Shown piece by piece: positions 1 through 18,545 of a stretch of 19,781 bases of DNA (the first letter of the stretch is position 1; every line of letters starts with the position of its first letter). The position numbers were made by a program, and so were the translations under genes. The notes below the pieces were generated by a model that did no database searches, was not told the DNA's origin, and saw only the letters and a list, made by a program, of their open reading frames with translations. The stretch spans positions 1 to 19,781 of the IMG/VR virus record IMGVR_UViG_2548876854_000015; one strand, written 5' to 3'. This DNA is from a virus. Lineage: Duplodnaviria; Heunggongvirae; Uroviricota; Caudoviricetes.

Positions 1-465
1 TTACTTTAAACACTGTTCGGTTATGTATTGCTGAGCACCTTCAAGTTGGGCCTGCATCATTACCAGTCGTTCCCGGAGGGTGAAATAATCCCGTTCAGCG
101 GTGTCTGCCAGTCGGGGGGAGGCTGCATTATCCACGCCGGAGGCGGTGGTGGCTTCACGCACTGACTGACAGACTGCTTTGATGTGCAACCGACGACGAC
201 CAGCGGCAACATCATCACGCAGAGCATCATTTTCAGCTTTCGCATCAGCTAACTCCTTCGTGTATTTTGCATCGAGCGCAGCAACATCACGCTGACGCAT
301 CTGCATGTCAGTAATTGCCGCGTTCGCCAGCTTCAGTTCTCTGGCATTTTTGTCGCGCTGGGCTTTGTAGGTAATGGCGTTATCACGGTAATGATTAACA
401 GCCCATGACAGGCAGACGATGATGCAGATAACCAGAGCGGAGATAATCGCGGTTACTCTGTTCAT
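1..465 (-). CDS. Rz: Rz i-spanin (inner-membrane spanin subunit)
   Basis: ORF 1..477 translation from [29 protein letters not shown]... is near-identical to lambda Rz as I recall it. Start taken at MNRV (ATG 465-463), directly abutting the endolysin stop (462-464). N-terminal TM segment. Confidence 0.9.
60..245 (-). CDS. Rz1: Rz1 o-spanin lipoprotein, embedded in Rz in the +1 frame
   Basis: 61-aa [27 protein letters not shown]...[15 protein letters not shown]: lipobox VVGC and proline-rich region as in lambda Rz1, lying wholly inside Rz. Confidence 0.85.
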
Positions 466-959
466 TGCTGACCCCACAAACAGATTTCACGCTCAATCTC
501 ACGACGAGTCATGAGACCTTTCCATTGCTTACCGCCAGCATATGTCCAGCGACGTAGCTGATCACATGCGCCTTTGATATCGCCCTGGTTTATTTTGCGA
601 AGAAGCGTCGATGTTCTGAAATTGCCAGCACCCACGTTGTAAACGAATGAGTAAAGAGCGCCGCGCGTTGTTTCCGGTATATCGACTTTGATGTACGGGT
701 TAATTTGTCTGGCGACAGTGGCAAGGTCTTTATTCAAGAGTGCTTTGCATTCTGCTTTGGTATACGTTTTACCGAGCATGATGTCTTTTCCTGTATGCCC
801 GTGACATACAGTCCATACACCAACAATATCTTTGTATGGTATGTAGCTGACACCTTCCAGACCATCGTTACCACTTGGGCCAGTGATTAACACTGATGCT
901 ATAGCAATTGCTCCGCCACCAATAGCAGCAGCAACGGCTTTTCGTAATGATGGAGGCAT
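462..959 (-). CDS. R: SAR endolysin (phage 21 R / RrrD-type lysozyme)
   Basis: 165-aa [30 protein letters not shown]... matches the DLP12/phage 21 lysozyme as I recall it, with a Gly/Ala-rich N-terminal signal-arrest-release segment. ATG overlaps the holin stop (TAATG at 957-961). Confidence 0.9.
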
Positions 960-1174
960 TATTCACCTCTCGCAGCCTTGCGCTTATCTTCTTTAATCTT
1001 GAAATAAAGGTTTGTCAGGTACGTCAGCAGGCCAAAAACCAGACTACCCAGCACACCGATTGCAGCCCACTGTGACGGAGTTACTCTATCGAGCAACTGT
1101 AAAAACCAGTAGCCAGCACTGCCTGCGGAGGTGCCATAGGCGACACCCGTTGTTAACTTATCCATGGATTTCAT
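959..1174 (-). CDS. S: Class II pinholin (S21-like), dual-start motif MKSM
   Basis: [26 protein letters not shown]...[17 protein letters not shown], 71 aa from the ATG at 1174. SD GAGGTGGGGG lies 5 nt upstream. The longer 102-aa ORF is an unsupported extension. Confidence 0.85.
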
Positions 1175-1514
1175 AACCCCCACCTCGCAGATGCGGGCGC
1201 TGTGTAATGGAAACAAAAAATGGCCACCAGCGGCCCGTAAAAAACACCCCGTCAAAAGCACCGGCATCCGCAGATGCCCTTTGCGTGGCGTTATTTGATG
1301 CGCGCCAGATGTGGCGCAAAGAAATGAAATAAGACTTATCGTAAATTAAGGTTAATTTGATGATTTAAACCACTTCTGAAGCTTAGTAGTATGAACATGT
1401 CCCCAGAAGGGGGCCAATACTTATTATTCTTCATGGACTTTGTCCCGCGGTCTTAATCCGACGACCGCGCTACTTTTCACCCTCTCGCAAATTGCTATCT
1501 AAAGGACGTTGTCC

Positions 1515-1547
1515 CACGAGTATTCCTGGATGCTCGTGTCTTTTTTT
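1515..1547 (+). terminator. Possible intrinsic terminator on plus strand (CACGAG stem, 12-nt loop, T7 run)
   Basis: cacgag-tattcctggatg-ctcgtg then tcttttttt. No annotated plus-strand gene upstream. Confidence 0.3.
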
Positions 1548-1560
1548 GTCCTGAGAAAGG

Positions 1561-1588
1561 AATAAAAAAAACCGCCAGATATGGCGGT
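1561..1588 (-). terminator. Intrinsic terminator on minus strand (candidate tR'-like terminator upstream of lysis genes)
   Basis: Perfect 7-bp stem ACCGCCA/TGGCGGT with a 4-nt loop, followed on the minus strand by a U9 tract (plus-strand aataaaaaaa at 1561-1570). Confidence 0.6.
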
Positions 1589-1953
1589 TGGTCAATGCAA
1601 GGGATGAATTTTTTAATTGTTATTAAACCGAGGCGTCGGGTGCCTCCCGAAGTATTCCGTGCTGTATGGATACTGTGGTTTCCCGCTAAACCGACTCTTT
1701 AAACCACCCTCGCACTGAGGAGCGCCTCTGTGGTGCGATTTACAACACCAGAATGATGCATCACCGACCCTGCTAGGAAATACAAAATCTCCACCGATAA
1801 TGCACCATTCTGCTGCCGTAAAAAAATCAGCACTGAGGCTACACCCGGCCTCAAATCATAGCCAGAGAACAGAATGCTTTTTCAAAACAACCTGCTCCCA
1901 CGTAATAAAAAAATACGCCAGTGCCGTAATACAATAAGGCTTGTTTCAAATGC

Positions 1954-2028
<75 letters not shown>

Positions 2029-2031
2029 ATA

Positions 2032-2107
<76 letters not shown>

Positions 2108-2340
2108 ATTGGTTCTTCAGGGGAGCGATATCACCGTTCAAAGAAGAGTTCCCCCTCAGAACCGTTTTCGATGATACGATTTAATATTCCAATCGCAACA
2201 ACAGCTTGCGTCAAGTTATGTAAATTTATTTATATGTTTTTATTTTATGTAAATAATTCACTTTCACTTAAAATATATACAACAACATATAAATAAATTT
2301 ATTTTGAAGGCGATGATTAAATGTCGTTTCTGATATCACA

Positions 2341-2375
2341 CCACAGAAACAACAAAACCCGCTCGATGGCGGGTT
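2341..2375 (-). terminator. Intrinsic terminator-like hairpin about 85 nt downstream of the Q-like gene
   Basis: 7-bp stem AACCCGC/GCGGGTT with loop tcgatg, followed on the minus strand by TTTTGTTGTTT. Confidence 0.45.
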
Positions 2376-2460
2376 CTATTAAAGTTTAATTGCGCTTGAT
2401 TCGCCTCGCGATACAGCTTTGCGAAGCGTAGCAAAATTGAAGCAGTTTATGCGTAAAAAA

Positions 2461-3003
2461 TCAAGCCGTTTTTTGAGCGAATGATTCTCGCATGGGAATG
2501 TATAGCGCATACTCAGCAACGGCCAACCAATTAGCAATTCGCTTTTCGCATGTGCTAAAACACCACTCTGGGTGTGCATCATTTAGCAATTCAGCCATTT
2601 TGCGTTTGGTCATCCCCCGCCCCTCATACCGTTGCCGAAGGACGCTAATCAATCCTGGATGCTCTGCCAGCACCTCACTTATGACCCGATCAATACATAA
2701 CGCCTCTGCATCAGTACAATGCGCCAGCCAGCTCTTTTGCTTACCGTTAATCATATCCCGCAAAAAAGCCTCAAGTTCAGACTTGTTCAGACCTGCTTTT
2801 TTCATCCTCCGGAGCGCCTCGTTAATTGCCGTTTTTGTCAGCTTTTTAGAGGCCAACAACTGGTTGAACATATTCCCCGTCTTACCGCCGCCAATATACG
2901 ACCAGCGCCCCCACATACGTAGTTTTCCCTGAATCCAGACACTTTCCAGCGTGGTGAGACGAAGGTGTTCTCCGCTTTTTCCTGTATTCGTTGGGTAAAT
3001 CAT
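2461..3003 (-). CDS. Putative late-gene antiterminator (Q-like) by position; family not recognised
   Basis: 180-aa ORF from the ATG at 3003 (MIYPTNTGKSGEHL...), preceded by AGGAGG. Its ATG overlaps the stop of the upstream ybcO-like gene (ATGA). Lies between nin-like genes and the tRNA/lysis region, where lambdoid Q sits. Sequence does not resemble lambda Q as I recall it. Confidence 0.45.
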   Translation of the reverse strand: MIYPTNTGKSGEHLRLTTLESVWIQGKLRMWGRWSYIGGGKTGNMFNQLLASKKLTKTAINEALRRMKKAGLNKSELEAFLRDMINGKQKSWLAHCTDAEALCIDRVISEVLAEHPGLISVLRQRYEGRGMTKRKMAELLNDAHPEWCFSTCEKRIANWLAVAEYALYIPMRESFAQKTA

Positions 3004-3290
3004 AAATATCCCTCCTTTCTCCAGATTTCTTGTGTGCGAAGAACACCTTCTGCATGCATCAGGCGTAATTCTTCTTTGGTGTAATCGATGGTTTTTACCC
3101 GCCCGTCGATTAGATCGTGGCATGAGCTACAGGCAATCGCCGCCTGCATATCGTGTGGTTTTGTCGCTGTTCCGCACGTTCCCGCCAGTCGGTAATGCGC
3201 CAGCACAGACGTTTCCGGATCGTGATTGCAGTAGCCAGGAATTCTGACGGTGCACATCTGCCCCCGCGCCGCTTTACGTAAATCCACCAT
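3000..3290 (-). CDS. ybcO: YbcO-like DUF1364 putative nuclease (nin region)
   Basis: 96-aa MVDLRKAARGQMCTVRIPGYCNHDPETSVLAH...CSSCHDLIDGR with a Cys/His cluster, resembling DLP12 YbcO from memory. Start overlaps the stop of the upstream gene. Confidence 0.7.
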   Translation of the reverse strand: MVDLRKAARGQMCTVRIPGYCNHDPETSVLAHYRLAGTCGTATKPHDMQAAIACSSCHDLIDGRVKTIDYTKEELRLMHAEGVLRTQEIWRKEGYL

Positions 3291-3889
3291 TACGCAAACT
3301 CCAGCAGCTGCGCGGCCACATTTTCGACTTGTTCCGGAGAGGAAAATTTACGGAACAGAATCCAGTTCCACAGCACATTCAGAACAGATTTATAAACCTG
3401 CTGAAACTCGGTTTCGTCCATATTCGCAAAAGCGATGGATTTCGCCCGACGCCCATGGCTACCGTCCGGATAAAAATGTTCGGTGTAAAATCCAGCCTGA
3501 ATGGTTACCCACTCGCGAAAAGCCTCAAACGACTTTAACAATGCCGTATCCCGGGTTCTGCGTGTCGCAACTGTATTCAGATATTGCTCTGCGGCATCAC
3601 TCAGGGCTGGCGTGTGTTCCCGACCAACTGATTCGCACAGGTAATCAACGAAACCAGACAGCAGTTCTCGTTCGCGAGGCGTGATCGCCCCACCGACCGG
3701 AGTCCAGTAATCGAATCCCAGTTGCAGGAGTTTGAAAAAACGCTTGTGGAATGCGTAGTTACGCACACGCTTAAAGTCTGCGTGTATCCACTCGCCTATT
3801 TTGATTTGATGCAGAAAATCACAACTCTCCGGCGTCGCCGGGAGAAGTAATCCGGAAGAGGTTTGTTTGACCAGTTGTATATGCGCCAT
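3290..3889 (-). CDS. Phage protein, DUF1367-like (nin-region neighbour of DUF1364)
   Basis: 199-aa ORF MAHIQLVKQTSSGLLLPATPESCDF...; family assignment is from memory of the DUF1367/DUF1364 gene pair and is unverified. Confidence 0.45.
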   Translation of the reverse strand: MAHIQLVKQTSSGLLLPATPESCDFLHQIKIGEWIHADFKRVRNYAFHKRFFKLLQLGFDYWTPVGGAITPRERELLSGFVDYLCESVGREHTPALSDAAEQYLNTVATRRTRDTALLKSFEAFREWVTIQAGFYTEHFYPDGSHGRRAKSIAFANMDETEFQQVYKSVLNVLWNWILFRKFSSPEQVENVAAQLLEFA

Positions 3890-4162
3890 TTCTCAATCTC
3901 TCGATGGCGCAGCGCAGCAGATGCCAGTTGTTCAGGCTGACGTATGAAGTATAAATAAACTGGCTCCAGTGTAAAGCCCCCACCTTAATGGAATAAAAAC
4001 CAAACAACAGATTGCTGGGATACAAACAACGCTTATTATTAAAAGCGGTTAAACAAATTAAATTTTAATGTTATGCAAATTTGTCAGATCACCATAATAT
4101 CTCATTTGAAAACCGCTGAAATAACAACCCTATCAGGGTTAATCATATTAAGGTGAGTAAAT

Positions 4163-4249
4163 ATGGAAAACAACAAATCTGCACATTACGTTCCTTTTTT
4201 ATCTGTAATACTTTTTGTTTTATGCTGTGCGTGGGCATTATTTTTATAA
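4163..4249 (+). CDS. Candidate 28-aa hydrophobic small protein (MENNKSAHYVPFLSVILFVLCCAWALFL)
   Basis: ATG with SD AGGTGAG 7 nt upstream; single predicted TM helix. Sits in the otherwise non-coding gap between hok and the DUF1367-like gene. No homolog recognised. Confidence 0.2.
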   Translation: MENNKSAHYVPFLSVILFVLCCAWALFL

Positions 4250-4357
4250 AAATATTCACAGATAAAATATACCCGCCAAAGCTGGTTAAGTGCGGGTGCG
4301 TTGAGGATGCCTGACACATCAGAGGTGGCGGGAGATTACTCTCCCGCCTGGTCACTC

Positions 4358-4513
4358 TTACTCTCTAGATTCGTAGTCTACGAAGACAGCGACCTCCGTC
4401 TGGCCGGTTCGGATTCGCACCTCGCAGAGGTCTTTCCTCGTTACCAGTGCCGTCACTATGACGGTTAAACAGATGACGATCAGGGCGATTAACATCGCCT
4501 TTTGCTGCTTCAT
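4358..4513 (-). CDS. hok: Hok/Gef-family type I toxin (51 aa)
   Basis: MKQQKAMLIALIVICLTVIVTALVTRKDLCEVRIRTGQTEVAVF... matches the Hok family almost residue for residue from memory. The GC-rich hairpin GGCGGGAG/CTCCCGCC at 4327-4348, just 3' of the stop, is consistent with a hok mRNA 3' stem. Confidence 0.9.
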   Translation of the reverse strand: MKQQKAMLIALIVICLTVIVTALVTRKDLCEVRIRTGQTEVAVFVDYESRE

Positions 4514-4940
4514 AGCCTGCTTCTCCTTGCCTTTCGGCACGTAAGAGGCTAACCTACATGTGTTCAGCATGGATTGAGCCTCAGATTAATGTTAAGCGTC
4601 CTGCAAGACGCGTAATGTTAACTGGGGCTTTTCTCTATCTGCCTTTTGGTGTTCATGCCTGAGACAGATAGCCTCAAGCACCCGCAGCGATTTTTACTTA
4701 ACTCTTCTTTTCACGCAAACCGTTTTTATCCTCAACGTAAATTTTACCAATATCGCCTAACACATCTCCCCTGCCCTGACGATGCTTACCTCTTTACACA
4801 GCCCCCTATTTATGTATTATCTTTTACAAACAACCAGTTAAGAGCTATCGGTGGGTGGGTTCGCCCTGCGGTAGCTTTTCCTTTATACATTGCATCTATT
4901 TATGTTCTAGTATATTCCTATATGTTCAAAAGGACTTTTC

Positions 4941-5873
4941 ATGCACAGCGTTAATTTCTATTCATTCCGCGTATTGACCCATAAAGGCAGTCGAGCCAGC
5001 AAAAAGCTTAATGAATTGGGTTTAAGTAATAAAAAAACGGCATATGAACTTTTTGTTGATTATTTTACTCTATATAAAAACACCCCCATCGAGTTTGGCG
5101 TATCCAAAACTAAAATATCTCTAGAACAACACGCTAAACTTCACTTTGATAACACAAAGAAAATTATATATGGTTATATAAAAGTTGGGAAATATGGAGA
5201 AAGTAGTGAAATAAAGGATGTAAAACTCAAAAAAATCCACTACAGGACAACTGCTTATGATGTAACACTCAAAGAACGTTATATTTTAATATACCTACCA
5301 GACACCCTTGAAGAAGGAATTATTGCATTCCATTCTTGCGATAATATTTCTGCTCGAGGTGTCCTTTCTGATTCTATCACTGAATATCTAAAAAACAAAT
5401 TTCAACTCGAAGCAAGAATCAATCCATTACATCATAAGAAAATCCCTCAATATATTCTCAATTCCGAATTAAAACAAATTAAGGCTCAAGGATATAAAGC
5501 ACCAAAAGACATTACTGATTCCTTTGGTCAAAACAAAACAAACATCAAGACAGACTTAATAATAAAAGCAAACGATGGCATGTTCGGAAGTTTCAGGGAT
5601 TTAAGAAACAAGAATATAGGAAACATCATTGAGATTATTGAAGATAAATGTGATGCAATAAAAGTAAGCTTACAGCTCGGCAGTCGGACTGTCGTTTTCA
5701 ATTATGATACCATACTAAAAAAAGGAATTTCCGCAGAGTTAGATGATAATGATCTAAAAATCGACCCATTAACAGGCATACCTGATCTAACAGCACTTCA
5801 TGACACGATAAAAAACCTTTCTAATGATATATTGTTAGAACTGCATAGCGGAAACAAAGGGGTGATCATATGA
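4941..5873 (+). CDS. Unknown 310-aa soluble Lys/Asn-rich protein; first gene of the AT-rich cassette
   Basis: Long ORF with SD AAGGA 6 nt before the ATG. About 30% G+C by hand count (19/60 in one line) against about 53% in a flanking phage line (32/60). No catalytic motif recognised. Confidence 0.7.
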   Translation: MHSVNFYSFRVLTHKGSRASKKLNELGLSNKKTAYELFVDYFTLYKNTPIEFGVSKTKISLEQHAKLHFDNTKKIIYGYIKVGKYGESSEIKDVKLKKIHYRTTAYDVTLKERYILIYLPDTLEEGIIAFHSCDNISARGVLSDSITEYLKNKFQLEARINPLHHKKIPQYILNSELKQIKAQGYKAPKDITDSFGQNKTNIKTDLIIKANDGMFGSFRDLRNKNIGNIIEIIEDKCDAIKVSLQLGSRTVVFNYDTILKKGISAELDDNDLKIDPLTGIPDLTALHDTIKNLSNDILLELHSGNKGVII

Positions 5874-6424
5874 ATAAAATAAATGTGCTGGGTGTAATAA
5901 TAAAACACTACAAAACAATGTCAGATCAGCGTGGAACAATGTTGATGAGCGACATTATCGTACATTTTATTGTTCCGCTATCTCTTTCTTTCGTTCTGTG
6001 CTGGACATACGGAATAATGAAACCGGCAATTGCTTCCGTCTTCGTTAACTTCGGGGCTATTACAACAGCACTATTAATGAGTGCAGTAATAATGATTTAT
6101 GAACAAAAACAAAAAACCATTACTAAGATATCAGACATAATTGAAGGACACAAATCCCGAGACAAATTGATATCATTAAACACTAACAAAACCATATATG
6201 AGCAGTTATGCCACAACGTCGCTTATGCAATATTAACTTCAATAGTATTGGTTATATTTTCAGTGATAATATATTTCCTGCCTGACAATGCAGTGGATTT
6301 AATGAAATGGTATTTTCGCGCACCTGCATATATTGTTAGCTTTTTAGCCTATACATCCTTTTTTATCACTGTTATAACGTTCTTAATGGTAATCAAAAGG
6401 TTTAGCACAATTTTAGATAATTGA
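5870..6424 (+). CDS. Unknown 184-aa integral membrane protein (4 predicted TM helices); second gene of the cassette
   Basis: ATG overlaps the upstream stop (ATGA at 5870-5873) with SD GGGGTG. Hydrophobic segments IIVHFIVPLSLSFVLCWTYGI, AIASVFVNFGAITTALLMSAVIMIY, VAYAILTSIVLVIFSVIIYFL, YIVSFLAYTSFFITVITFLMVI. 18/60 G+C in one line. Confidence 0.7.
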   Translation: MNKINVLGVIIKHYKTMSDQRGTMLMSDIIVHFIVPLSLSFVLCWTYGIMKPAIASVFVNFGAITTALLMSAVIMIYEQKQKTITKISDIIEGHKSRDKLISLNTNKTIYEQLCHNVAYAILTSIVLVIFSVIIYFLPDNAVDLMKWYFRAPAYIVSFLAYTSFFITVITFLMVIKRFSTILDN

Positions 6425-6435
6425 ACAGCGGAACA

Positions 6436-6467
6436 GCCGCCCTTTCGGGCGGCCTCCTGATGTTTTG
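6436..6467 (+). terminator. Hairpin GCCGCCC-tttc-GGGCGGC after the cassette, possible terminator
   Basis: Perfect 7-bp GC-rich stem 12 nt after the cassette stop; the downstream T-run is interrupted (ctcctgatgttttg). Confidence 0.4.
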
Positions 6468-6557
6468 AGGGTGCAGGAACCCCTCCGGTTAAGGATTTAA
6501 TAAAAATCACTTCTGATTTAAATTTTCAGTGTTTTGTTGTCAGGTGATTTATCGCCT

Positions 6558-6869
6558 TTACGCTTCAGCTTTATTTCGCAACCAGACACAAACCGGGCCA
6601 TCTTCGGTGTCATGTATTGAACCAATAAACCATCCATCGCCCTCTGGTCGTTCCGGTTCCCATGCAGAAATATCAGCATCACAAGCATCAAAGTCAGCAC
6701 ATCCTTCGTCTCTGAAGCAGAGGACGTATTGAAGTTTATTTTCCTCCATCCATGCGTTAAACTCTTCCGTTGAAATATGTTCTCTACCATCACAGAATTT
6801 TTCATATTCAGGATGCGTCCAGCAGCCATATTCATCACGTACTACTGGTATTTCTCTAATTTCTTTCAT
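6558..6869 (-). CDS. Unknown acidic Cys-containing 103-aa phage protein
   Basis: MKEIREIPVVRDEYGCWTHPEYEKFCDG... with SD GGGAGAA 6 nt upstream. About 28 Asp/Glu against about 10 Lys/Arg by hand count. Confidence 0.6.
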   Translation of the reverse strand: MKEIREIPVVRDEYGCWTHPEYEKFCDGREHISTEEFNAWMEENKLQYVLCFRDEGCADFDACDADISAWEPERPEGDGWFIGSIHDTEDGPVCVWLRNKAEA

Positions 6870-7119
6870 TTCTGTTCTCCCACGTTTTCAGACTTTCACC
6901 ACAGAACGGGCAAAAACACATTGCAACACCACGACCGATATATTGCCCAGAGTGAATTTGAGCAATATCTATGCCTGACTCGCCGGTGTTTATGTTCACA
7001 CGTTCCGGGATAAATATGCCTTTACTCTTGAATGTTGGATTTCCATATTCGAGAGATTTTGCCAAAGCCGCGCACGGTTCTATCTTGTTGCCATTAACCT
7101 GACATTTTGATGCGTTCAC
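6856..7119 (-). CDS. Unknown 87-aa protein with C-terminal CxCxxC motif
   Basis: Start taken at GTG 7119, overlapping the upstream stop (GTGA), with a strong SD AGGAGGT 6 nt upstream. The ATG at 7197 would overlap the upstream gene by 82 nt and has no SD. Confidence 0.5.
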   Translation of the reverse strand: MNASKCQVNGNKIEPCAALAKSLEYGNPTFKSKGIFIPERVNINTGESGIDIAQIHSGQYIGRGVAMCFCPFCGESLKTWENRNERN

Positions 7120-7532
7120 AGTACCACCTCCTGAAAATTTCCCTGATAGAAATCCAGTACACGCTGCATAGCTTCGCTCTGACGGCACTCGCGACAAATT
7201 ATGTTCTGTCGTCTGTTGTAACAGCGTATTTCACCATCCGGCAATGAATAAATCAGCTCGGGGTCTCTCTTCTTTTTCGCTGTACCTTTCGACATCTCTT
7301 TACGGGCCTTTATCCAGTCCTTGCGCGCCTGCTCCGAAGGAAATATCCCGTGCCCCGAACCATATACTATGCCACTGCCCACCAGCTCTTTCGCCAGAAC
7401 TTCTATCAGGTGTCTCGTTGCTCCGGTTTCATCTTCCAGTTGCTTACGCGTTTTCCTCCCGTCTCTGCGCACCAGTTCCACAATACGCGCCTTCAGTTGC
7501 TCCCGGTATTCAGGTGTAAAAACGTTTCTCAT
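7116..7532 (-). CDS. Unknown 138-aa phage protein
   Basis: Start taken at ATG 7532 (MRNVFTPEYREQLKARIVELV...) with SD GTGAGG, 7 nt after the upstream stop. The longer ORF from 7589 overlaps the upstream gene. Confidence 0.55.
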   Translation of the reverse strand: MRNVFTPEYREQLKARIVELVRRDGRKTRKQLEDETGATRHLIEVLAKELVGSGIVYGSGHGIFPSEQARKDWIKARKEMSKGTAKKKRDPELIYSLPDGEIRCYNRRQNIICRECRQSEAMQRVLDFYQGNFQEVVL

Positions 7533-7539
7533 AAGCGCC

Positions 7540-8301
7540 TCACTTTTCCAACACAACGCGACTGGTGGAATCGACAATCTGTCGGACAATATCCCGGTGT
7601 TTATTCAGCTCCCGCAGTGCGGCGCAGACACGCTCCCACTTCTGGACATGATTTTTCGCCCGGCGCAGTTCGCGGTTTGCCAGATGCAGCGATGGTAAAA
7701 TCAGGTCATCCGCCCGCGTTTCGGTGAACGATGGCAGCGACTGCACAATGTCCGCCACAGTTCCTGTTTTAATTTCTTCCTGTATTGCAGCTTCCTGTGC
7801 TGGTAACGCAACACCTGCTGGCTGAGGAAAGGCTTTACCATCAGTTTCCGTTACCAATGCAGCTTTCGGCTCTGCTGGTAAATTATCGTCCGGCATGCAG
7901 TAACGAAATTTACCGTTCTGATTTACGCGAATCAGGCGACCTTTGCTGATTGCCTGAGCCAACGTTGAAGCCACTTTGCGTGATGTGATACCGAACAGCG
8001 TAGCCAGCTCATCAGCCGTTTGTGGTCCGCGTTGTTCAATCGTCGCGGTTAAATCGCACTCTGAGATTTTCGCTACTGTTGCCGTGGTGGTTTCTTCCGG
8101 CAGTTCTGCCTGCTCTGGCTGTTCCTGCTGAACGTTGTTATCAGCCACACGCCAGGTGTATACGCTTTTATCAACGAAGCCAGCCTTTTTAAGTTCCCAC
8201 AGCTCGTTCAGCACTTCTTCACGACTGATATCAAGTCGCGCAGCCAGTTCTACCGACGTGGCTTTTCCCATTGCTTTCAGTACATCAAAAACGGTTTCCA
8301 T
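7540..8301 (-). CDS. ydaW: YdaW-like (DUF1627) protein, apparently full length
   Basis: [45 protein letters not shown]... N-terminus as in Rac ydaW from memory; SD GGGAGGAAA. K-12 ydaW is a truncated pseudogene. Confidence 0.65.
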
Positions 8302-8323
8302 TAAAATTTCCTCCCGGTAAAAA

Positions 8324-9070
8324 TCACTTCGCAATTCCTGGCTGGACGACATTCGGACGCCAGCTCTCCCAGTTAAAATTCACCCATCGCCCGCCGTTCA
8401 TGGTCATGCGATCCATAATCCGCTCGCCGAGCAATGTTTTCATGGCCTCATAGTTCAGGTTTGTCAGCATCCCCACGCTGCGCATCGACGCTGTCCGGCG
8501 ATCAACAATCTGGTGCAGCACCACCTGCTCGTTTTTTGTCTCGCGCTGAATGCCAATTTCATCAAGAACCAGCAGATCCACTTGGCACAGTTCCCGCAAA
8601 AATTTTTCGCCTGATTGCCCGTCGTCATAGCTGGCGTGTAGAGCACTCATGACATCAGCCACGGTAACCACAATCACTGTCTGGCCATCTTTCAGCAGGC
8701 GATTCCCGATAGCCGCCGCCAGATGGTTTTTTCCGGTACCAGGTTTTCCGCTGAACGCAAAATTTGTACACCCGGTCATCAGTTCATCAGCGATAGATTT
8801 CGCCTGGTTCAACGCGTATCGCTGACCGTCGTTCTGCACCTGGTAATTCGCAAACGAGCATTTGCGGTGCAATGGCTGGATGCCAGAGCGATTCAGAATT
8901 TTTTCCACCCGCAACTGACGATTCTGACGGTTGATCTCCTCACAACGTTTCTGGCCTTCGGAAAGTTGCCACTCGCGCCACTCCGCTACCGTTTTGAATG
9001 GGGCGGTTACATGTGGCGGGGCCAGTCTGCGGATACGTTCAAGAATGCCTCCTGCCGCAATATTTTTCAT
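8324..9070 (-). CDS. ydaV: DnaC-like replication/helicase-loader ATPase (YdaV)
   Basis: 248-aa ORF with Walker [12 protein letters not shown] and Walker B LLVLDEIG, directly downstream of ydaU. Length matches K-12 YdaV. Confidence 0.85.
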
Positions 9071-9076
9071 GGTCAG

Positions 9077-9934
9077 TTACCCCCTGAAGCCTGGCGGGAT
9101 CGCACTATCCGGTAACGAGACGGTGTTAACCTGTCGGAGTAACGTCTCAGGTCGAACACCTTTTGGCGCGAACAAGCCCTGGTATTCATTGGCGATGCTG
9201 TGTCGAATCACCTGCTCAGGTGAAAAACCCTGCTGGCGGAATTTTTCCAGCTCCCGTATCGCCCCGTTAGCGCCCTGCTCCGTTCGAATCGGTTTACGCA
9301 ATGCCTGGCGAAATTCAACCCACTCACGCCAGAGCGAGACAGAAATCCAGTTCGGCAAAGCAATATCCAGAGGGTCAAACTTTTTGACACCTCGATTCCC
9401 CCGGGGGGGATTTAGGGGGGGATCTGTTTTTAGATCTTTATCTGTATCTTTATTAGTTGCCTTTGTGTTGACATCATGTTCAAACACCACTTCAACATCT
9501 GTTTGAACACCTGTTAAATTTCTCTCTTGTTTTGTTTGAACATCTGCTTCCTTTCTGCTTCTTCTGGCCTGAACCGATGCTTTTCCTGCGGCTGATTTTT
9601 TGGTTAATTTTTCCCTGACTGATGCCAGATCTTCCTCAATCCGAAGATGCACCCATTCCTCGCCGTTATCGCAAAAAAACTCCCGCAAGGACGGTTCAAC
9701 ATCAGCCCATCGCTCGTTAGTCAGACGGGCAATTTTTGCCAGCCTGTTTTTAGGTATTGGCTTTCCTGTTTGCCAGTAATTGAACATCAGCAACAAATAC
9801 GCACCATGCTCCTCTGCTGACAAATGCATGGTGTCAGCCAGGTAATCAGCTATGTACAGTTGCATGTATGGTAATGCGGCCATAATTGCCCCGTATGATG
9901 CTGCCCGATTGCTTAGAATAAGCACAAACAGCAT
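9077..9934 (-). CDS. ydaU: Replication initiator, O-like (YdaU, DUF1376)
   Basis: 285-aa ORF containing MAALPYMQLYIADYLADTMHLSAEEHGAYLLL, matching K-12 YdaU length. An alternative start at ATG 9883 is possible. Low-complexity linker in the middle. Confidence 0.8.
   Translation of the reverse strand: MLFVLILSNRAASYGAIMAALPYMQLYIADYLADTMHLSAEEHGAYLLLMFNYWQTGKPIPKNRLAKIARLTNERWADVEPSLREFFCDNGEEWVHLRIEEDLASVREKLTKKSAAGKASVQARRSRKEADVQTKQERNLTGVQTDVEVVFEHDVNTKATNKDTDKDLKTDPPLNPPRGNRGVKKFDPLDIALPNWISVSLWREWVEFRQALRKPIRTEQGANGAIRELEKFRQQGFSPEQVIRHSIANEYQGLFAPKGVRPETLLRQVNTVSLPDSAIPPGFRG
9370..9545. repeat. Ori-like iterons and palindromes inside the ydaU linker region
   Basis: Three copies of a 10-bp palindromic core (TGTTCAAACA at 9477-9486; TGTTTGAACA at 9500-9509 and 9533-9542), plus GTCAAActtTTTGAC, CCCCCGGGGGGG and GATCTgtttttAGATC nearby. 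Confidence 0.45.
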
Positions 9935-9946
9935 GGAAACTTTTGC

Positions 9947-10369
9947 TTAATGAACAATGACAGAATCGTCGGAAGACCCGCCGCCGCTGAAATGCGCTTT
10001 CCGGTAAACGGCCTGGACTGCATCATCATGCGCATCAATTGCCGTACTTAACGCTTCCTGCGCCGCCAGTAATGCACGGCGTTCCAGGGTATCGAAGATG
10101 CAGAGTCGGTGACGCAGCTCGCGAGGAAGAATTGCCAGAACCGCAGGGATCAATTTCTGAATTTTTTCCCTTTGCGCATTCGTTTCACCTTTCAACCAAC
10201 GGTGATAGATATTCTGCTGATTGTTCCAGTCCTTGCCTGGAACCAGGGGCAATTCGCCGCCCCCCTGGCGCAGATATTCTTCAGTAATGGCATTGGCTAC
10301 CCATGCCTGCCCTTTTTCGGCTGCTAGGGCAAACAACACTGATTCGATGTGCTCATGCTTGATTTTCAT
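9947..10369 (-). CDS. ydaT: YdaT (cII-position early protein, toxic on derepression in Rac)
   Basis: 140-aa MKIKHEHIESVLFALAAEKGQAWVANAIT..., matches K-12 YdaT in length and sequence from memory. Confidence 0.85.
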   Translation of the reverse strand: MKIKHEHIESVLFALAAEKGQAWVANAITEEYLRQGGGELPLVPGKDWNNQQNIYHRWLKGETNAQREKIQKLIPAVLAILPRELRHRLCIFDTLERRALLAAQEALSTAIDAHDDAVQAVYRKAHFSGGGSSDDSVIVH

Positions 10370-10391
10370 GAATCATTTGCCTCTTGATGTT

Positions 10392-10688
10392 TCAGGTATG
10401 ATCAAATGAGGATTTGTTACTGTCATTTAGTTGCTTCACTGACATATTCTGCGAACAACATGCCGAACGTCGTAAATATGACCAGTCAATATCAGGACGA
10501 AGTTCTTCGCACAGAACCTCACCTCTTGTTGCACGTTCAATTGCTGGACATCTCTCGGCAGGCAATTGACGTACCCCTTTGATCCATTGATTTACGCTTG
10601 GAGGTGATACACCTAAAAGCCTAGCCATTGCTGATTGCCCACCGACAACAGCACAAGCTTGCTTGAATGAATAGTTCTCTTTTTTCAT
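10392..10688 (-). CDS. ydaS: YdaS (Cro-like HTH regulator)
   Basis: 98-aa MKKENYSFKQACAVVGGQSAMARLLGVSPPSVNQWIKG..., HTH; transcribed divergently from racR. Confidence 0.85.
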   Translation of the reverse strand: MKKENYSFKQACAVVGGQSAMARLLGVSPPSVNQWIKGVRQLPAERCPAIERATRGEVLCEELRPDIDWSYLRRSACCSQNMSVKQLNDSNKSSFDHT

Positions 10689-10715
10689 CGAATGAACTCC
10701 AAAAACACACAGAAA

Positions 10716-10792
10716 TATTAGGCGACGCCTAATATAAATGTCAATAGGCTATGCCTAATGCAATGAGGGTAGGGATTGCCTAATGCAATGAG
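10716..10792. promoter_or_regulatory. racR/ydaS divergent operator region
   Basis: Perfect palindrome TATTAGGCG-a-CGCCTAATA (10716-10734), TAGGC-tat-GCCTA (10745-10757), and a 16/17 direct repeat ATGCCTAATGCAATGAG / TTGCCTAATGCAATGAG (10751-10767 and 10776-10792). Shared half-site TTAGGC. Confidence 0.6.
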
Positions 10793-10811
10793 CATAGGAG
10801 AATATTAAGCA

Positions 10812-11288
10812 ATGCTTAGTGGTAAAGACTTAGGCCGAGCGATAGAGCAGGCCATTAACAAAAAAATCGCATCGGGATCCGTCAAATCAAAGGCGGAGGT
10901 CGCACGCCACTTCAAAGTCCAACCACCATCAATTTATGACTGGATTAAGAAAGGCTCCATAAGTAAAGATAAACTTCCAGAATTATGGCGTTTCTTTTCT
11001 GATGTTGTTGGTCCAGAGCATTGGGGGCTTAACGAATACCCCATACCAACCCCCACCAATTCAGATACAAAAAGTGAACTTTTAGATATAAACAACCTTT
11101 ATCAAGCAGCCTCTGATGAAATAAGAGCGATTGTAGCTTTCCTGTTATCTGGAAATGCTACAGAACCAGATTGGGTTGACCACGATGTTCGCGCCTACAT
11201 AGCAGCGATGGAAATGAAAGTGGGTAAGTATCTGAAAGCTCTAGAATCTGAACGGAAAAGCCAGAACATCACAAAAACTGGAACTTAA
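10812..11288 (+). CDS. racR: RacR prophage repressor (CI-like)
   Basis: 158-aa MLSGKDLGRAIEQAINKKIASGSVKSKAEVARHFKVQPPSIYDWIKKG..., N-terminal HTH; matches K-12 RacR length. Confidence 0.9.
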   Translation: MLSGKDLGRAIEQAINKKIASGSVKSKAEVARHFKVQPPSIYDWIKKGSISKDKLPELWRFFSDVVGPEHWGLNEYPIPTPTNSDTKSELLDINNLYQAASDEIRAIVAFLLSGNATEPDWVDHDVRAYIAAMEMKVGKYLKALESERKSQNITKTGT

Positions 11289-11360
11289 ACTTATATGGTC
11301 TGACGGAAAACTCCTGGATTCCGTTATTTAACCCCCCATCACTTTCTCCTGTCGTCATCA

Positions 11361-11425
11361 CCTATTAGGTTACGCTCAAAACATTAGGCATAGCCTATTG
11401 ACAATCAATTAGGCATTACCTATAG
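11361..11425. promoter_or_regulatory. Second operator-like cluster, inverted copy of the racR/ydaS operator, upstream of ydaG-ydaF
   Basis: ATTAGGCATAGCCTATTGACA (11383-11403) is the exact reverse complement of 10739-10759; further TTAGGC/TTAGGT half-sites at 11364-11370 and 11409-11414. Confidence 0.5.
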
Positions 11426-11595
11426 TTCCAGCATACCACCCACCCCGCCCCACAGAACGCCTGGCAATACTTCGAGTTACCAGGCCGTGGTAAGGGGTTA
11501 AGTAGCCAGCCCGAGGCGTATGAACATGACGGCGGGATTCAAATTTTGCAGTGCAGCAGTTAGTTCCGCCACCCGGCGTTAAGGGGAGAGATAAG

Positions 11596-11730
11596 ATGGT
11601 GCATTACGAAGTAGTTCAGTATTTGATGGATTGTTGCGGCATCACTTACAACCAGGCTGTGCAGGCTTTACGCAGCAACGACTGGGATCTCTGGCAGGCA
11701 GAAGCCTCTATCCGCAACAACAAGATGTGA
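11596..11730 (+). CDS. ydaG: YdaG small protein (44 aa)
   Basis: MVHYEVVQYLMDCCGITYNQAVQALRSNDWDLWQAEASIRNNKM, SD GGGGAGAG; below the 60-aa cut-off of the ORF track, translated by hand. Confidence 0.7.
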   Translation: MVHYEVVQYLMDCCGITYNQAVQALRSNDWDLWQAEASIRNNKM

Positions 11731-11740
11731 GGTGCGAAAA

Positions 11741-11896
11741 ATGCAAAAAATCGACCTCGGCAATAACGAATCCATGGTGTGCGGCGTGTTCCCCAACCAA
11801 GATGGAACGTTCACTGCTATGACGTATACCAAAAGCAAAACATTTAAAACCGAAACTGGTGCGCGCCGATGGTTGGAGAAGCACACAGTAAGCTAA
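11741..11896 (+). CDS. ydaF: YdaF small protein (51 aa)
   Basis: MQKIDLGNNESMVCGVFPNQDGTFTAMTYTKSKTFKTETGARRWLEKHTVS, translated by hand; 3' end overlaps the sieB stop convergently. Confidence 0.7.
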   Translation: MQKIDLGNNESMVCGVFPNQDGTFTAMTYTKSKTFKTETGARRWLEKHTVS

Positions 11897-12381
11897 CGAT
11901 TAAAACGTCTACTCCTGCTGTTCCAGAATAACTTCATAAAATGGGAGTATTTTTCGGTGACGAGATAATAAGAACAGTTTGCGCTATCACTCTGATGTTG
12001 AATGATGCCCTTCCGTTCTAATTTTTTCATAACCGGGTTACGGCAAGGAGAAGTGATAATAAGATTTCCGGTTTTAAGGAAATCTTTAAATACAGCTATT
12101 TCTTTCTCAGATAAACGAAGCAATACTCGTTGCTCTGGTAGTAATGAATAATGCTTTTGAATATGTGCTCGCAATCTTGAGAAGGAAATGGCGACCACGA
12201 AAGAAAAGGCAAAAACGATAATCTGAAAGAGCCAAGGTATTTCAGTATAAGCATTGAATGCGACAGTAAACTCTTTCGGTATCAGCCAGAGAGTGAGGCC
12301 AAAAATGATAATCGTATACATAAGTCTTTCGAGTGGCTCGTTAGCAAAAAGTTTCAACAATGGAGTAAATACATCCAACAT
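11893..12381 (-). CDS. sieB: SieB superinfection-exclusion membrane protein
   Basis: 162 aa from MLDVFTPLLKLFANEPLERLMYTIIIFGLTLWLIPKEF... with TM segments. The 203-aa upstream extension is rejected. Confidence 0.85.
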   Translation of the reverse strand: MLDVFTPLLKLFANEPLERLMYTIIIFGLTLWLIPKEFTVAFNAYTEIPWLFQIIVFAFSFVVAISFSRLRAHIQKHYSLLPEQRVLLRLSEKEIAVFKDFLKTGNLIITSPCRNPVMKKLERKGIIQHQSDSANCSYYLVTEKYSHFMKLFWNSRSRRFNR

Positions 12382-12599
12382 ATCAATAACTCTCAACTGT
12401 AAGGGTATTGAAATGTTAACACAAGCTCTCGCTGTAGGGGTATAGCCGAGACCACCGAAGCCCGGAGGTGGTGAAATAAAACTGGGCGCAACACGAAGGC
12501 GCATTTCCGATATCCATAAAGAGTCGGTCTTGTCTGTTAAATTTAAATGGTGGGAGTGCGCCTCCGGTTGTAAATAACGACATTGCTGTGTGTAGTCTT

Positions 12600-12646
12600 G
12601 GCGGCATCAGTTTTTTCTTGAAGTTCGGCTGATGTCCGCCCTTTTT
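12600..12646 (+). other. Long-loop hairpin GGCGGCATCAG...CTGATG(T)CCGCC followed by CTTTTT, upstream of kilR
   Basis: 11-bp stem with one bulge and an 18-nt loop, then a T5 run. Could attenuate read-through from the immunity region into the kil operon. Confidence 0.3.
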
Positions 12647-12811
12647 AAAGTGAATTTTGTGATGCGGTGAATGCGGCTAAGCGCACGCGGAACAGTTAAA
12701 AGCATCAGTGTTATGGGGGGATTATCCGGCGTTAATTGTTAACTGGTTAACGTCACCTGGAGGCACCAGGCACCGCATCAACAAAGTTCATTTGTGAAAA
12801 TGGAGATAATT

Positions 12812-13033
12812 ATGATTGCTCATCACTTCGGAACTGATGAAATACCTCGTCAGTGTGTGACTCCTGGTGATTATGTTCTTCATAACGGCCGGACATATAT
12901 TGCCTCGGCAAACAATATTAAAAAGCGAAAACTTTATATTCGAAACCTGACCACAAAAACATGCATTACTGACTGCATGATTAAAGTCTTCCTCGGTCGT
13001 GATGGTTTACCTGTAAAGGCGGAGTCATGGTGA
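12812..13033 (+). CDS. kilR: KilR (FtsZ/cell-division inhibitor)
   Basis: 73-aa [46 protein letters not shown]..., SD GGAG 7 nt upstream. Confidence 0.85.
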
Positions 13034-13203
13034 TGACTAAGAAAATAAAATGTGCTTACCACCTTTGCGATAAAGAAGTTAAAGAAAGCAAAAGCATTAA
13101 AAGACCACTTCATTTCATGCGTGGAGTTATCCCAACGACGGAAATGAAAAAATATTGTAGTGAAATATGTGCCGAAAAAGACCAGATGGCACACGAACTT
13201 TAA
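13033..13203 (+). CDS. ydaE: YdaE small Cys-rich zinc-binding protein (56 aa)
   Basis: [56 protein letters not shown], translated by hand; start overlaps the kilR stop. Alternative in-frame ATG at 13027. Confidence 0.7.
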   Translation: MTKKIKCAYHLCDKEVKESKSIKRPLHFMRGVIPTTEMKKYCSEICAEKDQMAHEL

Positions 13204-13277
13204 TTAACTGACTATGCGAAACTGAATTTATGCCAGCAATGGCAGGGATTCGCTCAACCTTAATTAAGGAGAAAAAC

Positions 13278-13553
13278 ATGATTACCAGTTATGAAGCCAC
13301 TGTTGTAACTACTGATGACATTGTTCACGAAGTTAATCTGGAAGGAAAGCGTATTGGCTACGTGATTAAAACAGAAAATAAAGAAACCCCATTCACTGTG
13401 GTTGATATCGACGGTCCATCAGGCAACGTTAAAACACTTCACGAAGGTGTCAAAAAAATGTGCCTGGTGCATACCGGAAAGAATCTGCCCGCAGAAAAAA
13501 AAGCCGAATTTCTGGCAACTCTAATTGCAATGAAATTAAAAGGTGAAATCTGA
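13278..13553 (+). CDS. racC: RacC
   Basis: 91 aa from MITSYEATVVTTDDIVHEVNLEGKRIGYVIKTENKETPF..., SD AAGGAG. Confidence 0.85.
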   Translation: MITSYEATVVTTDDIVHEVNLEGKRIGYVIKTENKETPFTVVDIDGPSGNVKTLHEGVKKMCLVHTGKNLPAEKKAEFLATLIAMKLKGEI

Positions 13554-13558
13554 AAGAA

Positions 13559-13583
13559 ATAGCCTGCGTATGACGCAGGCTAT
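13559..13583. other. Perfect 11-bp inverted repeat with 3-nt loop between racC and recE
   Basis: atagcctgcgt-atg-acgcaggctat, 6 nt after the racC stop. No U-tract on the plus side; a TTCTTTC-type run follows on the minus side. Confidence 0.4.
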
Positions 13584-13654
13584 GAACAGTGTGTATCCGG
13601 CAAGATCATTCACTGAACAAAACGAATTTTAATCTGAGTTGAGGTTAAAAAACA

Positions 13655-16600: not shown

Positions 16601-16726
16601 CGCCGGACGCTACGCCAGATAAACGAAGCCCTGGAGACAAACAACTGGCCAGCACCGATTACCGAAAGTTATACCGACGAATTAAACGACTTTGATCTTC
16701 GTCGTCTTGAAGCACTGAGCATCTGA
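13655..16726 (+). CDS. recE: RecE-family exonuclease VIII, 1023 aa, with divergent expanded C-terminal nuclease region
   Basis: The first roughly 590 aa are near-identical to K-12 RecE as I recall it. The C-terminal part is only distantly alignable to the RecE nuclease core (RVRPDIEIR...ICADVKSVS against RCRPDKIIPE...IMDVKTTAD) and carries an extra segment of about 150 aa with an internal repeat ([10 protein letters not shown] / [11 protein letters not shown]). Confidence 0.85.
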
Positions 16727-16737
16727 GGAAGGACACA

Positions 16738-17790
16738 ATGAACGAATTAACTCAACAAGAAAATATTAACTCTAATGTTGCGGTTTTCAGCCCTCAGTCC
16801 CTGGCTGCAATTCAGACATTTTCCCAGGTAATGGCTTCCGGCATGGCTACTGTACCGGAACACCTCCGGGGAAATCCATCAGACTGCATGGCCATCACCA
16901 TGCAGGCGATGCAGTGGCAAATGAACCCTTACGCAGTAGCTCAGAAAACTTTCGTTGTGAATGGTGTGCTCGGATATGAAGCGCAACTGGTTAATGCCGT
17001 AATCAGTACTCGTGGGCCGCTAACCGGGCGTATTGAATATGACTGGTTCGGGCCGTGGGAAAAAATTATCGGGAAATTTGAAATCAGGAAGAGCGACAAA
17101 GGGAAAGAATATCGTGTACCTGGCTGGAAGCTGGCCGATGAAAACGGGATCGGTGTTCGTGTCCAGGCAACACTACGCGGCGAAAGTAAACCACGCGTAC
17201 TGGAATTACTTCTGGCGCAGGCCAGAACACGTAACTCAACGCTATGGGCCGACGATCCTCGCCAGCAGCTTGCCTATCTAGCGCTGAAACGCTGGGCGCG
17301 CCTTTATTGCCCCGAAGTGATTCTTGGAGTGTACACCAGGGACGAACTGGACGAGCCACAGGAAAAAATCATTAATCCGGTTCAGGAACATAAAAACACT
17401 TCCGCTTGCCGCGCGGAACGTGAAACAACAATTATTGAGCAGGATGCCGGGGAAAACTGGATCGATGCTTTCCGTGAACGTATTGAGCAGGCACAAAGCA
17501 CCGGGGAAACAACAGCACTTCGCCAGGAAGTGGAAGATCATAAAAATACACTTGGCGCTCTCTATACGGAACTTAAAGGAAAAGTGGTTCAGCGTCATCA
17601 CCGTCTCAATGCTATTGCCCGTATCGAGAAGATGATAAATGACCTACCTTCTTCAGGTGATCCAGAAGCAGAACAAAAATTTACTGCTCTGGAAAATACG
17701 CTGAATGCTGCCCGGCCACATCTGGGTGAATTATATGAGGCGTATAAAACGACACTGACAGATATGAAACCAGAATATATCGGCTCCTGA
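16738..17790 (+). CDS. Putative single-strand annealing protein in the RecT position; family not recognised
   Basis: 350-aa ORF immediately after the recE-like gene with SD GAGGAAGGA. Sequence does not match K-12 RecT (269 aa) as I recall it; function inferred from position only. Confidence 0.45.
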   Translation: MNELTQQENINSNVAVFSPQSLAAIQTFSQVMASGMATVPEHLRGNPSDCMAITMQAMQWQMNPYAVAQKTFVVNGVLGYEAQLVNAVISTRGPLTGRIEYDWFGPWEKIIGKFEIRKSDKGKEYRVPGWKLADENGIGVRVQATLRGESKPRVLELLLAQARTRNSTLWADDPRQQLAYLALKRWARLYCPEVILGVYTRDELDEPQEKIINPVQEHKNTSACRAERETTIIEQDAGENWIDAFRERIEQAQSTGETTALRQEVEDHKNTLGALYTELKGKVVQRHHRLNAIARIEKMINDLPSSGDPEAEQKFTALENTLNAARPHLGELYEAYKTTLTDMKPEYIGS

Positions 17791-17800
17791 TATTGACTTT

Positions 17801-17838: not shown

Positions 17839-17853
17839 ATGAGAGAAAAGACA

Positions 17854-18544: not shown

Positions 18545-18545
18545 T

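Follow-up and report, generated by a model that had tools for sequence, protein, structure and literature searches.

A prophage-borne gene pair conserved as a unit across distant bacterial hosts: a probable RexAB-type exclusion module

The stretch of DNA analysed here (the window) is 19,781 nucleotides (nts) long, positions 1 to 19,781 of the Caudoviricetes record IMGVR_UViG_2548876854_000015 in IMG/VR, and the subject is a cassette of two genes within it, A and B, which is probably a RexAB-type abortive-infection or exclusion module. Open reading frame (ORF) A (4941..5873, + strand) encodes a basic soluble protein of 310 amino acids (aa), putatively a sensor or DNA-binding component, for which a two-domain fold like that of RexA and RdgC is predicted. 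ORF B (5870..6424, + strand) is translationally coupled to A and encodes an inner-membrane protein of 184 aa with four transmembrane (TM) helices, the putative effector. The start of B and the stop of A overlap by 4 nts, read directly as ATGA at 5870-5873, and purine-rich Shine-Dalgarno-like stretches precede both genes, AAGGA 6 nts before the start of A and GGGGTGA 5–6 nts before that of B. All annotated flanking genes are on the strand opposite to the cassette. The guanine plus cytosine (G+C) content of the cassette is 33.2%, against 46.7% for the remaining window and about 50–53% for nearby phage genes. An earlier sequence-only reading of this DNA had reported the two opposite-strand ORFs, their ATGA overlap, the Shine-Dalgarno sequences, a hairpin at 6436-6453 and the low G+C relative to the flanks, and each of these is present as it described. 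It had also called four hydrophobic helices in the second protein, and they recur both as four segments in the sequence and as a four-helix model from AlphaFold2 (AF2).

Both A and B are under strong purifying selection. In comparison with a 92%-identical homologue the ratio of nonsynonymous to synonymous substitution rates (dN/dS) is 0.06 for A and 0.07 for B, and in more distant A/B pairs the proportion of nonsynonymous differences (pN) is 0.12–0.23 with synonymous sites saturated. Because of these low values A and B are real genes and not chance ORFs. The protein encoded by A has no hydrophobic segment, is rich in K, I, L, D, S and N, and has an isoelectric point (pI) of 9.1. The four hydrophobic segments of B are accompanied by positive charges at the N-terminus, in the central loop and at the C-terminus, a positive-inside pattern from which an N-in/C-in topology follows. 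The second TM helix (TM2) of B (VNFGAITTALLMSAV) is nearly invariant and is the most conserved part of the whole A/B pair.

Neither protein has a match in Pfam, NCBIfam or PADLOC 2.0. In PHROG they belong to phrog_15676 (A) and phrog_15250 (B), both families of unknown function. Of the profiles used in the searches, A3 is the deep, 135-sequence A family, A4 the narrow A family, and A2 the B family of 54 members. Sequence searches of the Protein Data Bank (PDB) with the single proteins and with A3 give only noise. Close homologues of A form 33 clusters and those of B 60, with every source-named match from Enterobacterales and all of them labelled ‘hypothetical protein’. When 1.84 billion representative sequences are searched with the A-family profile, at least 577 clusters (at 50% identity) are recovered at an expectation value (E) of ≤1e-3, and 115 at E ≤1e-10; most of the matches listed are 300–315 aa long and aligned over most of their length. 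The majority of this wide family is metagenomic, and its named sources are Halomonas/Vreelandella, Pseudomonas cedrina and Glaesserella parasuis. A scan of species-representative genomes yielded only two extra loci, and no meaningful Pfam or PADLOC match is found for the 135 sampled members. The only invariant or near-invariant residues of the wide A family are Gly, Pro and the initiator Met, because of which A is argued to be non-enzymatic. Searches of the literature, DefensePredictor included, and by accession turned up no prior description of the A/B family or of a third Rex-like family in E. coli.

The two genes travel together. Every A homologue examined, over a range of identity from 100% to about 20%, is followed directly by a homologue of B (the sample comprises the Pf phage PfAC16, 36 lambdoid loci and six loci that are metagenomic or from Pseudomonas). 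In the 37 loci that were fetched for comparison, which are given L numbers where they need to be told apart, B is present after every A that is intact and not cut off by the end of the contig. In most of these loci B is offset from A by +929 to +932, which corresponds to the 4-nt overlap, and the deviating values are +1164 (L027 and L028), +734 (L034), +713 (L037) and +968 (L047). Each of the six distant A homologues (identity about 20%) is immediately followed by a same-strand gene, of 176–215 aa where complete (one is cut by the contig end). The products of these downstream genes are B homologues by hmmsearch (E 4e-8 to 8e-35), and the complete ones have four hydrophobic segments. Motifs shared by B and its distant homologues are an N-terminal KINV, VNFG.I.TALL in TM2 and a C-terminal LMIVKR. 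A Pfam scan of the B family matches DUF6419 weakly in 15 of the 54 members (best E 2e-4) and the SMODS-associated four-TM effector S_4TM, also weakly, in two (E about 0.007), both of which are probably noise from TM composition. The G+C of the cassette is below that of its flanks in every host sampled.

The only cultured phages with the A family are filamentous Pf phages of Pseudomonas. In PfAC16 (OR863247.1; L052 412-1883) ORF1 of 311 aa and ORF2 of 179 aa, both recorded as hypothetical proteins, overlap by 4 nts, and they match A3 at 3e-94 and the wide B profile at 5e-50, respectively. This pair has a G+C of 42% versus 59% for the remaining locus and directly adjoins the phage repressor gene. 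Sister Pf phages carry IetAS, Avs, AbiE and other defence genes in the same accessory region, and the authors who described them left both PfAC16 ORFs hypothetical.

The window is a 100% match, over the region tested, to the chromosome of E. coli MEI003, where it forms part of a Rac-like prophage with racR, ydaS/T/U/V, sieB, kilR, recET and ralR. The cassette is present in 69 of 5,426 complete E. coli genomes, with at least 80% of it covered in 37 of the 69; of the regions on its two flanks, that of hok is present in 4,985 genomes and that of DUF977/DUF1627 in 2,894. A second clade of the cassette has a DNA identity of about 75%. Other prophages with this backbone have different genes in the slot that separates DUF977 from hokD: in a sequence type 131 (ST131) prophage (L051 4979-5644) it is QueH (epoxyqueuosine reductase), and in another prophage there are small ORFs together with genes for a DNA cytosine methyltransferase, an O-methyltransferase and an ATP-binding protein, the last truncated by the end of the locus. 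Cargo of various kinds seems to gather in this slot. Across the 37 fetched loci the flanking genes and the cassette vary in identity independently of each other (for instance, A at 99% with DUF977 at only 53%), which is the behaviour of an exchangeable module. The cassette is rare, AT-rich and compositionally foreign cargo, and the slot that it occupies, with hok/sok on one side and the replication genes on the other, is a variable one. The sequence-only reading had taken it for foreign cargo beside hok and had proposed presence or absence across prophages as a check, which these counts and the alternative occupants of the slot bear out. In prophages of Enterobacter, Brenneria and Erwinia a 35–39%-identical pair (A′/B′) stands after the DUF1627 gene and shares its strand with the replication genes. 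QueH is also found directly beside the A′/B′ pair in Enterobacter prophages (L003-L006, about 6900-7560).

The AF2 model of A has a mean predicted local distance difference test (pLDDT) score of 72, residues 1-165 and about 240-305 being confident. An antiparallel sheet flanked by helices makes up the N-terminal part of the model; a beta/alpha region occupies the centre, and the C-terminal part is a long helix. Lambda RexA is the best match to this fold among solved structures, followed, among matches that align over more than 120 residues, by Iml3, CENP-N, Chl4 and the C. glutamicum epimerase 3oh8. The paper on the RexA structure lists Iml3, Chl4, that same epimerase, RdgC and Cas2 as structural relatives of RexA. 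As modelled, A appears to have the two-domain fold of RexA, a split globular domain with an inserted dimerisation domain. When the model is compared with viral models by Foldseek, six uncharacterised phage proteins of 277–322 aa come first (E 6e-15 to 1e-4) and phage RdgC proteins come next (E 2.4e-3, probability 0.98). Siphoviridae sp. ctylc9 is among these viral matches of A and is the source of the second-ranked one of B. The AF2 model of B consists of four long helices (pLDDT 86); it has no match at E ≤1e-3 among viral predicted structures and does not recover RexB, so that B is linkable to RexB by topology only.

Profile-profile alignment also bears on the relationship to RexA. With hhalign, A3 aligns collinearly with a 30-sequence RexA family profile over 143 columns (A 106-249 to RexA 83-236) at a pairwise E of 0.005, and its score of 27.3 exceeds those of all 160 column-shuffled RexA controls (mean 15.0, standard deviation 2.4, maximum 25.0). 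In this alignment the conserved INPL of A stands opposite IEPLMR of RexA, adjacent to the published hinge loop, and ElvIKak stands opposite IEIiIKPK. The link drawn by these profiles is weak but non-random, and it falls short of family membership. The signal comes from the deep A3 only, the narrow A4 profile finding nothing against the RexA family, and A2 against single-sequence lambda RexB likewise finds nothing (probability 0.5%). Negative hhalign results from thin profiles carry little weight, because a two-sequence profile of RexApp, a Pseudomonas putida protein considered below, failed to recover the published HHpred link between RexApp and RexA.

The interpretation favoured here is that the pair is a RexAB-type abortive-infection or exclusion module carried as prophage cargo, and this is considered probable. 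Five Rex-like systems have been described so far (PMC12894663). One of them, PP_5643/PP_5644 of P. putida (RexABpp, in prophage P1), defends against phages (Sci Rep 2026, PMC12894663); RexApp binds DNA, and its overexpression leads to growth arrest and membrane damage that depend on RexBpp (PMC12894663). The experimental hallmarks of the RexAB class are that heterologous phages are excluded only when both genes are there, that excess A protein depolarises or damages the membrane through B, and that the A protein is a dimer which binds DNA non-specifically. By analogy with lambda RexAB and RexABpp, on which the binding of DNA by A, its activation of B, the formation of a pore and an anti-phage phenotype are all modelled, the cassette would be expressed from the lysogen as a two-component exclusion module. 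In it A, basic, probably dimeric and non-enzymatic, and with a RexA/RdgC clamp-like fold, would serve as a cytoplasmic sensor that binds DNA or a phage protein–DNA intermediate made early in infection. Once triggered, A would activate B, and B would oligomerise into a channel or pore in the inner membrane. Depolarisation or leakage of the membrane would follow, with a fall in ATP, and growth of the infected cell would cease before the phage cycle is completed. The RexAB analogy had already been drawn from the sequence on architecture, and it is now stronger than was claimed, with RexA as the best solved fold match and a weak profile-profile signal. The accompanying statement that ordinary sequence similarity to RexA, RexB or Kiwa is lacking agrees with the negative outcome of the model searches and of hhalign against RexB. 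Of the earlier description of the pair as ‘unassigned or novel’, unassigned stands (for Pfam, NCBIfam and PADLOC), but novel needs to be softened: the type of system is known, and what is new is the sequence lineage.

Several observations weigh against the RexAB-type assignment. Pfam RexA (PF15969) and PADLOC PDLC02339 are matched neither by A (E ≤1) nor by 135 relatives (E ≤0.01), and Pfam RexB (PF15968) and PADLOC PDLC02340 neither by B nor by 54 relatives. As positive controls, lambda RexA and RexB score 9e-110 and 8.6e-61 with their own models, and 36 of 36 RexA homologues carry PF15969. A, B and their relatives likewise match none of the six models of PDC-M53, the PADLOC candidate system considered with RexABpp below. 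The hhalign alignment with the RexA family, for all its E value, has a probability of just 6.9%, and the A profile finds nothing when set against single-sequence lambda RexA. In the model of A the poorly predicted part, residues 183-237, lies within what would be the counterpart region of the RexA dimerisation domain, and lambda RexA is not in the top 50 Foldseek/BFVD matches. B has no detectable similarity to RexB or RexBpp, and a four-TM bundle is a generic architecture. Finally, though the pair is prophage-borne in all contexts seen, in Rac-like prophages it is not next to the immunity repressor, the classical place of RexAB-type genes.

The division of labour between the two proteins could be the reverse of that just given. 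One of the five described Rex-like systems, gp30/gp31 of mycobacteriophage Butters, works in this way (PMC12894663), and in a pair of that kind soluble A would be the growth-inhibiting or antiviral effector, sequestered and silenced by B until infection. The strict co-occurrence of A and B and their tight translational coupling fit a toxin with its neutraliser equally well. However, three of the five (Sbash, CarolAnn and RexABpp) are reported to be lambda-like, with the membrane protein as the effector (PMC12894663). The position of TM2 of B as the most conserved segment suggests an active role for that protein, and A has no conserved catalytic-type residues; reversed polarity is held to be unlikely.

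That the pair serves the prophage rather than excluding other phages is improbable. A would in that case be a DNA-binding protein of RexA/RdgC type and modulate the lysis-lysogeny switch, or host recombination or replication restart, with B as a membrane-anchored accessory or stabiliser. Lambda RexA does bind DNA without sequence specificity and, with no need of RexB, biases the bistable switch; RdgC, a structural relative, modulates RecA, and phage RdgC is among the structural matches of A; and both the Pf phage and L018, the P. putida relative, have a repressor adjoining the pair. But an obligate membrane partner, a rare and patchy distribution and low G+C are better suited to accessory defence, the cargo slots elsewhere hold defence or modification genes, and the A/B pair is found in prophages with unrelated immunity regions.

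A purely envelope-based superinfection exclusion, in which B blocks DNA injection or receptor function and A is a cytoplasmic cofactor, without abortive infection, is very unlikely. Such a block is often how small prophage proteins of the inner membrane work (SieB, Imm and PfsE are examples), and sieB is in the same prophage while PfsE is in the Pf phage. Known proteins of this class, however, need no 310-aa DNA-clamp-like cytoplasmic partner, and the RexA-like predicted fold of A points to intracellular sensing. A divergent Kiwa-like system, with a four-TM KwaA-like sensor and a KwaB-like DNA-binding effector of roughly 310 aa, can scarcely be credited at all: the component sizes and the pairing of a four-TM with an approximately 310-aa soluble protein do resemble Kiwa, but the four-TM gene kwaA is upstream of kwaB, the reverse of the A-B order, and A, B and relatives match neither DUF4868 nor PADLOC (whose Kiwa models are assumed to be in the copy searched, there being no positive control). 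Outright readings as Kiwa, as a CBASS-type system and as a holin were rejected, on the lack of any model match and on wrong gene order or context.

Under the RexAB-type reading the signals around the cassette bear on how it would be expressed. A promoter-like element, TTTACA-16 nt-TATTAT (4793..4820, + strand; 10 of 12 matches in a consensus scan), is a candidate for the cassette's own promoter; it is a candidate only, because the scan yields no more such sites than it does in shuffles. TTTAC(A/G)-N16-TGTAT blocks are kept upstream of A in cassettes with only 66–78% protein identity. About 30 nts downstream of the promoter-like block, in the putative 5′ leader of A, is a leader element of a small hairpin and an invariant box, TGGGTG-N4-CRCYC-(T/G)G-GCGGTAGC (4852..4875, + strand), whose chance expectation in the window is 0. 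It is present once in each of 24 fetched loci, always 50–105 nts before A begins (beside the window, these are L001, L002, L021-L031, L033, L035-L037 and L039-L045). All cassettes of the 66–100% clade have it, L032 retaining only the GCGGTAGC box, and it is absent from the fetched loci of the 35–39%-identity clade. Its hairpin has 98% of cells paired versus 40–60% in slid controls. The changes within it are one-sided only and its 5′ arm is invariant, which makes a sequence-specific DNA site as likely as an RNA structure. No Rfam match to the element is found at E ≤1. Within the clade of the window it has an attenuator- or terminator-like look, owing to an outer stem and TTTTCCTTT.

At the other end, 12 nts past the B stop, is the perfect GC-rich hairpin already mentioned (6436-6453, + strand), with a 7-base-pair (bp) stem of GCCGCCC and GGGCGGC and a TTTC loop. 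The terminator scan gives an overlapping stem with a TGTTTT tail at this site. Because the T-run is weak and displaced the hairpin is only terminator-like, and it suggests a terminator-like module boundary. Taken with the opposite strand and the promoter-like element, it suggests that the cassette may be expressed independently. A 34-bp sequence that starts inside the hairpin (6437-6470) has 97%-identical copies in four otherwise unrelated phage genomes, those of Escherichia phages vB_EcoS-640R1, vB_EcoS-813R8 and PhiR42_1 and of Actinobacillus phage vB_Apl-pPE4, falling in unannotated DNA in each; it may be a shared terminator or module-junction sequence.

The left neighbours of the cassette are a Hok/Gef gene with its sok RNA (4508-4683, − strand; Rfam RF01794), immediately upstream, and then DUF1367, DUF1364 and DUF1133 genes. 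To the right are two small ORFs, DUF977, DUF1627 and ydaV/U/T/S; an ORF for an acidic protein of 103 aa is at 6558..6869 (− strand), downstream of the cassette. Several toxin or exclusion functions are gathered in this one prophage, namely RalR/RalA, hok/sok, sieB and kilR. The antitoxin small RNA RalA of the RalR/RalA type I toxin–antitoxin system is at 18047-18225 of the window (− strand), and there are two tRNA genes (Gly and Thr according to RefSeq; the entry is at 1957-2107, − strand). Some copies of the cassette appear to be degraded: that of strain DS26-1 has an insertion of IS1 (NZ_CP035879.1 830728-833114), ORF A is apparently shortened or interrupted in L037 and L044, and L027 and L028 have the large A-to-B offset of +1164. 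Many carriers of the approximately 98%-identical cassette (E24377A, O169:H41 strains, TW11681 and WS1933D among them) are strains that we take to be enterotoxigenic E. coli reference isolates. The pattern may reflect lineage-linked carriage of the Rac-like prophage variant among them.

The A/B pair may well constitute the largest branch yet of Rex-like abortive-infection systems, one missed by PADLOC 2.0, Pfam and NCBIfam. That branch would span lambdoid double-stranded DNA prophages of Enterobacterales, elements of Pseudomonas, Halomonas and Glaesserella, and single-stranded DNA Pf phages, and its Enterobacterales clade would have a conserved putative cis-regulatory leader of its own upstream of A. 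On the comparisons made here the two-component logic and the predicted sensor fold would be known, and both sequence families new. Also new are a membrane partner larger than RexB, a different prophage position, the leader element and a far wider distribution. A sixth sequence-distinct Rex-like lineage would thereby be added, much larger than the five described, and indicates that modules of a RexA-fold sensor and a four-TM effector are a broad class and no lambda curiosity. The family alignments are usable for building detection models. RexAB was the first abortive-infection system to be found, and the question of its trigger and activation dates from Benzer's rII experiments. If the pair does defend, it would offer a tractable system, native to E. 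coli, for how a RexA-fold protein senses infection and how its membrane partner is opened.

Comparison with known systems begins with lambda RexAB (PDB 8TWQ), in which, as in A-B, the gene for the soluble protein is first and that for the four-TM protein second. B is an adjacent four-TM, N-in/C-in inner-membrane partner of the kind that characterises RexAB-type systems. The components are also alike in size and charge: A has 310 aa and a pI of 9.1, against 279 aa and 8.6 for RexA and 330 aa and 9.2 for RexApp, and B 184 aa and 9.3, against 144 aa and 9.3 for RexB and 188 aa and 9.2 for RexBpp. The differences from the lambda pair are that neither A nor B has family-level sequence similarity to its counterpart, that A is 31 aa and B 40 aa longer, and that rexA and rexB are separated by 15 nts whereas A and B overlap by 4. 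Unlike lambda RexAB, the pair of the Rac-like prophage is outside the immunity region, on the opposite strand and with its own leader element. With 36 clusters, whose named members are from Enterobacterales, the RexA family is narrow in comparison with the at least 577 clusters at 50% identity of the A family. A RexA 100% identical to that of lambda is recorded for the 48-kb MW057783.1 ‘Campylobacter phage CJLB-4’ and in M. tuberculosis assemblies (‘protein rexA, partial’); these records are most likely lambda DNA contamination or mislabelling.

Likenesses extend beyond lambda. The actinobacteriophage pairs Sbash gp30/31, CarolAnn gp44/43 and Butters gp30/31 also consist of a prophage-encoded cytoplasmic protein and a four-TM protein. 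They mediate heterotypic exclusion, and their position relative to the repressor varies. Their A components are longer (337–372 aa) and their hosts actinobacterial, and the likeness to A-B is drawn from descriptions only. RdgC (PF04381; PDB 2OWL), of the RexA fold class, is close to A in length (about 303 versus 310 aa); A has no match to the RdgC Pfam model, the likeness being at the level of fold and to phage RdgC only. RdgC is a stand-alone gene, whereas A is always paired with B.

A further comparison is with RexABpp, for which anti-phage activity is on record. Its locus was recovered by a degenerate pattern from primer-derived termini in the supplement of PMC12894663, and is at 2501-4062 of L020 (IMGVR_UViG_637000222_000004), with a relative at L018 8536-10097. 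The identity of L020 is indicated by the exact rexBpp reverse primer, by six of the seven published RexBpp mutated residues being in place and by a RexApp mass that fits 37.5 kDa. RexABpp corresponds to the PADLOC candidate PDC-M53 (PDC-M53A 8.4e-157, PDC-M53B 2.8e-72), a cross-reference apparently not made in the 2026 P. putida paper. Scored with the A3 and A2 profiles, the RexApp-like protein reaches about −1 bits and the RexBpp-like protein 3.6 bits. Membership of RexABpp in the A/B family was rejected, as these scores and the PDC-M53 models separate the two. RexABpp is downstream of a CI-like repressor, whereas the pair in Rac-like prophages is not beside a repressor. Lambda RexAB, PDC-M53/RexABpp and A/B are thus three sequence families, for which a common plan of a RexA-type fold with a four-TM partner is proposed.

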